From the sequence record PV340561: a stretch of DNA of 64,000 nt, one strand, 5' to 3'. This DNA is from Escherichia phage PhiR41_1. Every line of letters starts with the position of its first letter. Positions within the stretch are counted from its first letter, which is position 1. Both the position numbers and the translations under genes were made by a program. The notes beneath the pieces were generated by a model that saw nothing but the letters and a program-made list of their open reading frames with translations, was not told where the DNA came from and made no database searches. Below are positions 31,571 through 32,121 of the stretch, piece after piece.

Positions 31571-31664
31571 GTATTTATTCAACATCTTACCATCATCCCC
31601 CGTAACACCCCTACGGTCAGCCTTCGGTCCATACAGAGAAAAGGTTGCATACGCTACAGAAACG

Positions 31665-31745
31665 GCTGGGGATTTTCAGGGAAACGGTCGAGTTGCCTGT
31701 GTGGATTTCGGGAAAAGGCTCGATGCCGGTTCAGGAACGGCGGCG
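31665..31745. repeat. iteron-like cluster of GGAAACGG-type repeats
   Basis: Four copies (GAAACGGC, GAAACGGT, GAAAAGGC, GGAACGGC) spaced 12, 31 and 21 bp, with a TGTGGATTT DnaA-box-like element among them; second cluster at 35185-35255. Confidence 0.45.
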
Positions 31746-32121
31746 TACCGGTATAGCGAGAGAGAGTTGCAGCTACCCACCTGTAATGTGCGGGAAGAAG
31801 AGAGACGCTCACGTGCAGGCTGACTTGCTTACCGCTGGATTCCCTCTGAATGCCAGATACAGCGTAATTGTGCCAGACAGCCAGCGGGTCACAATCGATT
31901 TCAGTAGGTTTTCGGGGAGAGGATTATTCTGCCCACCAGCCCCGCGGCGCGCGTAGAGCAGAATATCGTAAATACTGGCTCTCGTGTCGTTCCCGGATAT
32001 TCACTGCCCAGCCTGGCTTTCCCGACATAAAATCCTTTTTCGCCTTTGTCTTATTGCGATAATAACACCAACAAGTAAACAGCATATTTAGACGTTATAG
32101 AAACGAAGTGAGGATGAAGAG

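Follow-up and report, generated by a model that had tools for sequence, protein, structure and literature searches.

Two conserved repeat arrays bracket a small-gene operon of SSU5-type phage-plasmids and may be targets of the element's own FljA-family protein

Escherichia phage PhiR41_1 (PV340561) was analysed over a stretch of 64,000 nucleotides (the window), in which two arrays of a short direct repeat lie on either side of an operon of small genes. By sequence comparison the window belongs to an SSU5-type phage-plasmid. A ~6-kb region surrounding the repeats showed 98.5% identity to Escherichia phage CMS-2020a and ~94% identity to Cyrano, a phage-plasmid of E. coli LF82, with weaker matches to Klebsiella phage-plasmids and Salmonella phage SSU5. 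The phage-plasmid lifestyle proposed in an initial annotation of the sequence agrees with this placement in the SSU5 family. We tentatively prefer the explanation that the FljA-family regulator encoded by the element itself binds the arrays at several sites, probably at the level of RNA, and regard it as quite possible.

The core of the repeat is RGRAAMGG (GGAAACGG-type), with the consensus G-RGRAAMGG-C. The initial annotation had described repeats of this type in two clusters of four and three copies. The clusters themselves are real, but five and four copies were found, those at 31637 and 35139 having been missed; the copy given at 31669 should be placed at 31659, and the claimed 12-bp spacing is absent. 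Spacings were 21, 22, 31 and 22 bp in array 1 and 48, 33 and 22 bp in array 2. The sequence GAAACGGC was observed 5 times in the 64 kb, with 2.0 expected, and all five lie inside the two clusters. As a null for clustering, 200 Markov simulations of the window were scored for the largest cluster within 120 bp. This was 1 copy in 147 runs, 2 copies in 52 and 3 copies in 1, whereas the observed clusters hold 5 and 4. The clustering of the repeat is non-random, far beyond chance. Motif enumeration returned the two plus-strand clusters and, searched as GRAAMGG, none elsewhere in ~104 kb of the related complete plasmid pTHO-010-2; the minus strand had no cluster of the repeat.

All array copies lie on the strand of the flanking transcription, and the clusters bracket the block of small genes, as had been noted initially. 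The true repeat unit is ~22 bp (...TTTTC-GGGAAACGGC-TGG...). Relatives differ by whole 22-bp units, one of which is missing from array 1 of this window. Across the copies the invariant core positions are AA and the 3′ GG, not GGA. The first copy of array 2 lies within the loop of the terminator hairpin T2, 3′ of the gene at 34642-35124, and the one at 35213-35230, TAGCCGACGGGAAACGGCC, is similar to the E. coli fliC 5′ untranslated region (5′ UTR). A further sequence at 35198, AGGAACGT, was not conserved, and similarity between the regions 3′ of the two clusters was limited to repeat units. A coding repeat was ruled out because the spacings are not multiples of 3, and a pac or cos site because 3.5 kb separate the two clusters and the terminase genes are distant from both.

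The arrays were compared in eight annotated relatives and 77 IMG/VR loci. Both had the same place, strand and spacing in this set, typically 22, 22, 22, 31, 22 bp for array 1 and 33/34, 22 bp for array 2. In alignments the cores were kept, while the spacers were unrelated between the E. coli, Salmonella/Enterobacter and Klebsiella groups. Conserved cores with free spacers support the view that the arrays behave as conserved binding-site arrays. Moreover, the arrays persist with the same core in very distant relatives, including a Pectobacterium plasmid, and 750 bp around array 1 had matches in 718 plasmid records. Lack of conservation in related genomes, which the initial annotation had considered, was thus not the outcome; conservation was strong. 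Helical phasing, also claimed there, was seen at multiples of ~10.5-11 bp in the window and in close relatives, but the 48-bp gap of array 2 breaks it and distant relatives are off phase, with spacings of 24/10/26, of 22/22/17/33 and, in the locus L107, of ~11 nt. Since the same core is retained in distant relatives with altered spacing, strict helical phasing is, as judged from these alignments, not the conserved property.

Natural losses were found in two groups of loci. In a Serratia-type lineage (L090, L091 and L108; 110.6-kb contigs from many samples), both arrays are lost and one copy is left per site. This lineage keeps the ParB_N gene pair, the helicase, the packaging genes, the 216-aa core protein p216, the hairpin T1 and the other motifs. 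It has no homologue of the FljA-family gene that lies to the right of the arrays in the window (Table 1), and it is the one lineage without that gene. A 67-aa gene is also missing there, as it is from many array-bearing loci. Every array-bearing locus, on the other hand, has the FljA-like gene, even at ~25% protein identity, and the arrays are kept in each of the relatives examined for this that have the gene. Gene and arrays occur together in Pectobacterium Drgb1, K. quasipneumoniae, pfekpn2511-2, Cronobacter JZ38 and L107, where the protein is highly diverged. The absence of the gene from the array-less lineage led us to the FljA-like protein as the candidate partner of the arrays, and the co-occurrence of gene and arrays speaks for this pairing. 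A second group of variants in IMG/VR (L061, L086, L050 and L079-L081) is without array 1 and the A+C-rich region beside it, and keeps array 2, the FljA-like gene and p216. In L061 the junction at the missing array 1 resembles the endpoint of an insertion or deletion. In the SSU5, Enterobacter and Cronobacter relatives, the conserved non-coding block that separates array 1 from the operon promoter (31760-32040) gives way to a minus-strand gene of 80 aa (SSU5_110). We also considered P0174, an FljA-like copy on a chromosome, as an independent context and set it aside, since it appears to be the same element in integrated form, poorly assembled.

The Pfam family to which the candidate partner belongs, Flag1_repress, is described as 'repressor of phase-1 flagellin'. 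An AlphaFold 2 model of the protein showed two helix-plus-five-strand domains, with a predicted local distance difference test score (pLDDT) of 79 and a predicted template modelling score of 0.80; a pair of tandem Sm/Hfq-like domains is confidently predicted. Sm folds are usually single-strand binders, and Sm proteins form rings. In a census of clusters at 50% identity among 1.84 billion protein representatives, the FljA family was tiny, with 28 clusters that come mostly from SSU5-type phage-plasmids. The family profile also retrieved P0184 (E 3e-30), which we take to be Salmonella FljA. The family relationships suggest that Salmonella FljA derives from SSU5-type phage-plasmids. In flagellar phase variation of Salmonella, FljA represses translation of the fliC mRNA; direct binding of FljA to the fliC 5′ UTR, and the exact site, have reportedly been described. 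The FljA-like gene belongs to the core genes of 835 plasmids, among them plasmids from Klebsiella (345), Y. pestis (62) and Shigella. Because it is kept in plasmids of non-flagellated hosts, its conserved target should lie inside the element and not in the host fliC. More than 800 PLSDB records carry the array/FljA-like module.

The array motif was also compared with fliC leaders. These contain the hairpin ACGG-UGAGAAA-CCGU in Salmonella and Citrobacter and GGG-UGGAAA-CCC in E. coli, and the GRGAAAC motif of the arrays sits in the hairpin loop of these fliC 5′ UTRs; the Pantoea leader has a different loop without the motif. When the E. coli leader was set against array 2, ATTGAGCCGACGGGTGGAAAC aligned with ATTAGCCGACGGGAAAC, sharing ATT(G)AGCCGACGGG(TGG)AAAC (p ~0.004-0.009), although the match is only ~7-17 nt long.

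The hairpins next to the arrays bear on whether RNA or DNA is recognized. The pairs of T1 are rich in G-U and valid only as plus-strand RNA, and one GC<->AU pair covaries, which indicates that T1 works as plus-strand RNA. The loop of T2 stays GGAAAC-like across lineages, with GGAGAC and GGAAGC as variants; its stems vary (GGGCC/GGCCC, GGGGC/GCCCC, GGCGUC/GGCGCU). The RNA of the two arrays had no above-random structure (z +0.55 and -0.40), and RNAalifold over array 1 gave no conserved structure besides T1; a structured non-coding RNA at array 1 was ruled out on that ground. We favour RNA-level recognition because the copies lie on the strand of the flanking transcription, T1 is of RNA type, the T2 loop is kept and the arrays are unstructured, as Sm binding needs.

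In the mechanism that we propose, the FljA-like tandem-Sm protein would bind single-stranded nucleic acid and would be expected to form a ring-shaped oligomer. The motif would be read on plus-strand transcripts, array 1 in the extended untranslated region that leads from T1 to the small-gene operon, and array 2 from the T2 loop onward into read-through RNA. Several motifs could be held at once by one or two protein rings, like TRAP or HutP on repeat RNAs, and transcripts entering or leaving the operon would thereby be marked to be repressed or insulated, in analogy to the action of FljA at the fliC 5′ UTR. In a variant of the mechanism the array RNA would act as a sponge, titrating the protein as CsrB titrates CsrA. 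The binding motif of the FljA-like protein, RNA rather than DNA as its ligand, its oligomeric state and the regulatory outcome are what we infer here.

Known systems resemble this arrangement in part. TRAP targets hold 11 GAG/UAG repeats and HutP targets 2x3 UAG repeats, and CsrB and RsmZ are sponge RNAs for CsrA. As in these systems, short motifs recur at even spacing on a single strand, and an RNA read from it would be otherwise unstructured; the fold class of the candidate partner, Sm, forms rings. Unlike in TRAP, the array spacing is ~22 nt instead of 5 nt, and the protein families are unrelated. With FljA and the fliC 5′ UTR the arrays share a homologous protein family (Flag1_repress), the GRGAAAC of the fliC loop and, in T2, a copy placed in a hairpin loop. 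In contrast to the single site of fliC, 4-6 tandem copies occur here in two arrays, which do not lie beside a ribosome-binding site, and the putative target is inside the element and kept in non-flagellated hosts.

Several observations weigh against recognition of the arrays by the FljA-like protein on RNA. The co-loss of gene and arrays represents one independent lineage, and the copy that survives there at each site is perfect. The motif shared with fliC is only ~7 nt, and fliC has GAAAC-C where the array copies have an invariant GAAAC-GG. The arrays lie 3′ of the hairpins T1 and T2, not 5′ of them; array 1 ends ~380-390 nt 5′ of the first start codon and array 2 comes after the operon terminator. 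Because of these positions after T1 and T2 and ~390 nt from the start codon, a block of the ribosome-binding site in the fliC manner cannot apply directly. A regular unit of 22 bp that is gained or lost as a whole is a classic trait of DNA iterons, and the accompanying motif CCCTACGG(T)CAG has opposite orientations at the two clusters, which is sensible only for DNA. As for transcription of the region, no site passed a sigma-70 scan of 30500-32150, and in Cyrano lysogens CYRAN_103/104, the open reading frames called over the A+C-rich stretch and array 1, were expressed at or near background.

The main rival explanation takes up these DNA-like traits and makes the arrays operators or insulators on DNA; we consider it rather unlikely. 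An element protein would coat both arrays on duplex DNA and loop, roadblock or insulate the operon, an arrangement that would be comparable to terminator-factor sites flanking a transcription unit or to handcuffed iteron sets. The 22-bp unit gives spacings of ~2 and 3 helical turns in most lineages, the cores are conserved with free spacers, the second motif is inverted between the clusters, and the arrays lie directly 3′ of T1 and T2, where a roadblock would reinforce termination. On the other hand, phasing fails in distant relatives (17, 24, 26, ~11), and neither the strict single-strand orientation nor the placement of a copy in the T2 loop is required of DNA sites. The binder could be an unnamed protein, p216, which may have a winged helix at its C terminus, or the FljA-like protein if it acts on DNA, although Sm folds are normally single-strand binders. 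Sub-threshold matches of p216 to three winged-helix families speak for the second candidate. For p216, sequence and profile searches of the PDB and Pfam scans of individual members gave such sub-threshold hints only, no DNA-binding protein came out of the search, and p216 is kept where the arrays are lost. A single-sequence AlphaFold 2 model of p216 had a low pLDDT, 49.

A decoy or target for a host RNA-binding protein such as CsrA, or a tandem duplication without function, was considered very unlikely. About 70% of the copies contain GGA, many as GGGAAAC or AGGAACG, which recalls CsrA sites, but the invariant positions do not include GGA and AGAAACGG copies are without it. The copy number varies by whole units, as a tandem duplication would allow; neutral repeats were nevertheless ruled out, as the core is kept from Escherichia to Pectobacterium and the spacers have diverged.

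The initial annotation had read the repeats as iterons of a plasmid-type origin or as a centromere-like partition site. The arrays do have an iteron-origin trait, tandem direct repeats of ~17-22 bp, with 22-bp units in 5 copies here and 6 in relatives. However, sequence comparison does not support them as the plasmid origin of the element, nor as a demonstrable partition site. In pTHO-010-2, the flanks of repA carry separate iterons at a spacing of 21 bp (ATCCACTATAGAGAG), an incA-like set and TTATCCAC DnaA boxes, and by these features the repA region is an IncFIB/P1-like replicon. It lies ~33 kb from the arrays and, by synteny, ~3 kb beyond the left end of the window. Because the element has this repA replicon with different iterons ~33 kb away, the arrays are not expected to be its plasmid origin. 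The RepA iterons share no motif with the array repeats, and the possibility that the arrays are RepA iterons was rejected on both motif and location. No cognate Rep initiator gene adjoins the arrays. GC content across array 1 is 47-51%, with no conserved AT-rich unwinding element or DnaA box. The DnaA-box-like sequence reported within cluster 1 is present, as TGTGGATTT at 31700-31708, but it agrees with the DnaA box at only 7 of 9 positions and its spacer is not conserved: relatives from Salmonella, Enterobacter and Cronobacter have wholly different sequence there, and in Klebsiella the spacer is deleted. The loss of the arrays in the Serratia lineage also argues against the origin, as does the absence of cluster 1 from some natural variants. 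Compared with iteron replicons (P1 oriR-repA-incA, F ori2-repE-incC, R6K, RK2), the arrays are alike in their ~22-bp units, in two sets that bracket genes and in whole-unit changes; they are unlike them in having no Rep gene between or beside them and no unwinding element, in being apparently dispensable in one lineage, and in that the real P1-like replicon is elsewhere. This removes a tempting mis-annotation of such repeats as an origin or parS.

A bipartite lytic origin, used in phage mode and built like P4 ori/crr or P1 oriR/incA, is a separate proposal and an improbable one. A putative initiator would act on octamer repeats in clusters 3.5 kb apart, and the A+C-rich transcribed stretch and a UvsW-like helicase would serve transcription- or R-loop-primed initiation. 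Two clusters of an 8-9-bp direct repeat do flank a gene block, a large conserved non-coding region with extreme strand asymmetry and a promoter-like element is at hand, a DEAD/UvsW-type helicase is encoded at 40741-42300, and no description of a lytic origin of the SSU5 family was found in the literature searched. Against this stand the GC content and missing unwinding element already given, the lack of an adjacent initiator gene, and the lack of a local GC-skew switch beyond the A+C-rich patch. Moreover, the Serratia lineage lost the arrays and yet keeps the replication and packaging genes, and some natural variants are without cluster 1 and the A+C-rich stretch. The likeness to P4 ori/crr lies in octamer repeats in two clusters, a few kb apart and flanking an operon. 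In P4, by contrast, the alpha primase-helicase, which itself binds the repeats, is encoded between the clusters; here the bracketed genes code for small proteins of unknown function.

Least probable of all is a partition centromere (parS/parC-like) bound by the two ParB-like proteins encoded at 42.4-43.7 kb, as the initial annotation had proposed. Phased direct repeats in two clusters recall R1 parC and pB171 parC1/parC2, and the ParB_N domain was confirmed in both proteins, but support for a partition system was not obtained. Only ParB_N was detected, with neither a helix-turn-helix nor a dimerisation domain, and no ParA, ParM or TubZ was found near the arrays or the ParB_N genes. These genes lie 7-11 kb from the arrays in one operon with an ABC-type ATPase and terminase genes, and they are kept where the arrays are lost. 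The asymmetric 8-mer is also unlike the palindromic parS. Unlike the R1 and pB171 centromeres, the arrays have no adjacent par operon with ParA/ParM and a ribbon-helix-helix adaptor, and the ParB_N proteins do not co-vary with them. The ParB_N pair, the ABC-type ATPase and a 296-aa protein form a conserved operon (42365-45280) directly 5′ of the small and large terminase genes, which looks less like a partition system than like a module associated with packaging or DNA modification.

Array 1 makes up the right-hand part of a ~1.5-kb conserved non-coding locus, and a conserved non-coding control region is thereby defined. Directly 5′ of T1 lies an A+C-rich stretch with a GC skew of ~-0.45 and an AT skew of ~+0.5. 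It contains GCCATTACYC repeats at 30952, 31087, 31200 and 31290 and a tandem of ~31 nt, ACCCACCTCTT..CAGGCTACCGA. Relatives from E. coli to Pectobacterium share the composition, repeats and offsets of the stretch; those annotated by PGAP have no gene on it, and its indels are not multiples of three. At its head is a promoter-like element, just 5′ of which CGTTGAT/ATCAACG heptamers, two per strand, occur within 160 bp (30574-30734). In a nine-genome alignment, heptamers and promoter-like element were all invariant, and together they look like an operator/promoter for an A+C-rich leader. A leader of this kind, structure-free, C-rich and G-poor, may be an ideal substrate for Rho or an Sm protein, with a possible tie to the same module.

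The FljA-family protein and this locus may together form a two-part module, in which a tandem-Sm RNA binder and ~1.5 kb of non-coding DNA with GGAAAC arrays gate or buffer an early operon, as a repeat-RNA operator or a CsrB-like sponge, and of which Salmonella FljA with its fliC-leader target would be a domesticated offshoot; taken as a whole, this wider proposal is speculative and somewhat doubtful. The module appears to be undescribed in the literature searched, where nothing was found on iterons or origins of SSU5/pHCM2, on FljA in phage-plasmids or on FljA as an Sm/Hfq-like protein, and no description of lysis-lysogeny and early-gene control in SSU5-like elements. A concrete pair of protein and site is proposed here. 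If it is correct, a structural class (tandem Sm/Hfq-like) and a recognition motif could be assigned to the FljA family, the retention of a 'flagellin repressor' on plasmids of non-flagellated hosts would be explained, and a phage-plasmid origin would be indicated for a textbook regulator of phase variation. Among the large plasmids of clinical Klebsiella, E. coli, Enterobacter and Salmonella, SSU5-like phage-plasmids rank with the commonest, and Y. pestis pMT1 belongs with them.

Table 1. Positions of the repeat arrays, the candidate partner and neighbouring features in the window.
Feature	Position	Strand	Remarks
Promoter-like TTGACG-18-TATACC	30760..30789	+	Head of the A+C-rich stretch; conserved; identified by eye, fails the sigma-70 scan
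A+C-rich stretch	30790..31520 (asymmetry from ~30600)	+	Non-coding, ~750-900 bp; directly 5′ of T1 and array 1
Hairpin T1 (with T-run in the E. coli group)	31543..31575	+	Left edge of array 1; preceded by invariant TATAAGTGG
11-bp tandem CCTACGGTC / CCTTCGGTC	31610..31629	+	Just left of array 1; conserved
Repeat array 1	31637..31745	+	5 copies of RGRAAMGG(C): 31637, 31658, 31680, 31711, 31733
Extended -10-like TGCGATAAT	32055..32063	+	Conserved, before the small-gene operon; followed by a AAACAnnnTGTTT-type palindrome; identified by eye
Bracketed small-gene operon	32122..35124	+	72, 109, 103, 135, 124, 50 and 160 aa
Intrinsic terminator T2 of the small-gene operon	35132..35156	+	Loop AGAAAC/GGAAAC
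Repeat array 2	35139..35252	+	4 copies: 35139, 35187, 35220, 35242
Inverted copy CAGCTGCCGTAGGG of the 11-bp tandem	35165-35178		Left of array 2; conserved
216-aa core protein p216 (PHROG 1513)	36243..36893	-	Candidate alternative DNA-level binder
FljA-family protein	37192..37710	-	Pfam Flag1_repress, E 1e-68; ~2 kb right of the arrays; proposed repeat binder
Two ParB_N proteins	42365-43731		Pfam ParB_N only; no helix-turn-helix or dimerisation domain detected

By synteny with pTHO-010-2, the gene order of the window runs from nucleotide metabolism through accessory genes to head and tail genes. The proteins of the small-gene operon all match PHROGs of unknown function, and Pfam gave nothing above threshold for them. 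Repeats of CGGTC/GTCGG type are much expanded in the K. quasipneumoniae relative L089. No Rfam family matched the whole window at gathering thresholds, and a scan of the window for tRNA and tmRNA found none. The ~730-bp intergenic region between convergent operons at 35260-35990 has strongly conserved blocks, minus-strand terminator-like hairpins at 35735-35715, 35689-35668 and 35494-35465, and one plus-strand hairpin; it could encode small RNAs. Just left of the module, at ~26.7-30.1 kb, are accessory genes for an ApbC/Mrp-type ATPase (MinD-like in the Cyrano annotation) and a full-length methionyl-tRNA synthetase. Expression of the ApbC-like gene in Cyrano lysogens was ~9-fold over background.

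Two further motifs are enriched across the window. The Chi sequence GCTGGTGG has 15 copies, on both strands, versus 1.2 expected, and the conserved copies at 31933 (minus strand) and 35285 (plus strand) adjoin arrays 1 and 2. The palindrome AAACAANTTGTTT has 22 copies at <=2 mismatches (6.6 expected), 6 of which are exact; examples are at 15899, 16628, 30177, 30228, 32939 and 45701. Its copies lie ~12-16 nt 3′ of GATAAT/TATTAT-like -10 boxes and 10-40 nt 5′ of the start codons of many plus-strand genes, and the palindrome is likely a shared operator or the 5′-terminal hairpin of a phage promoter family.

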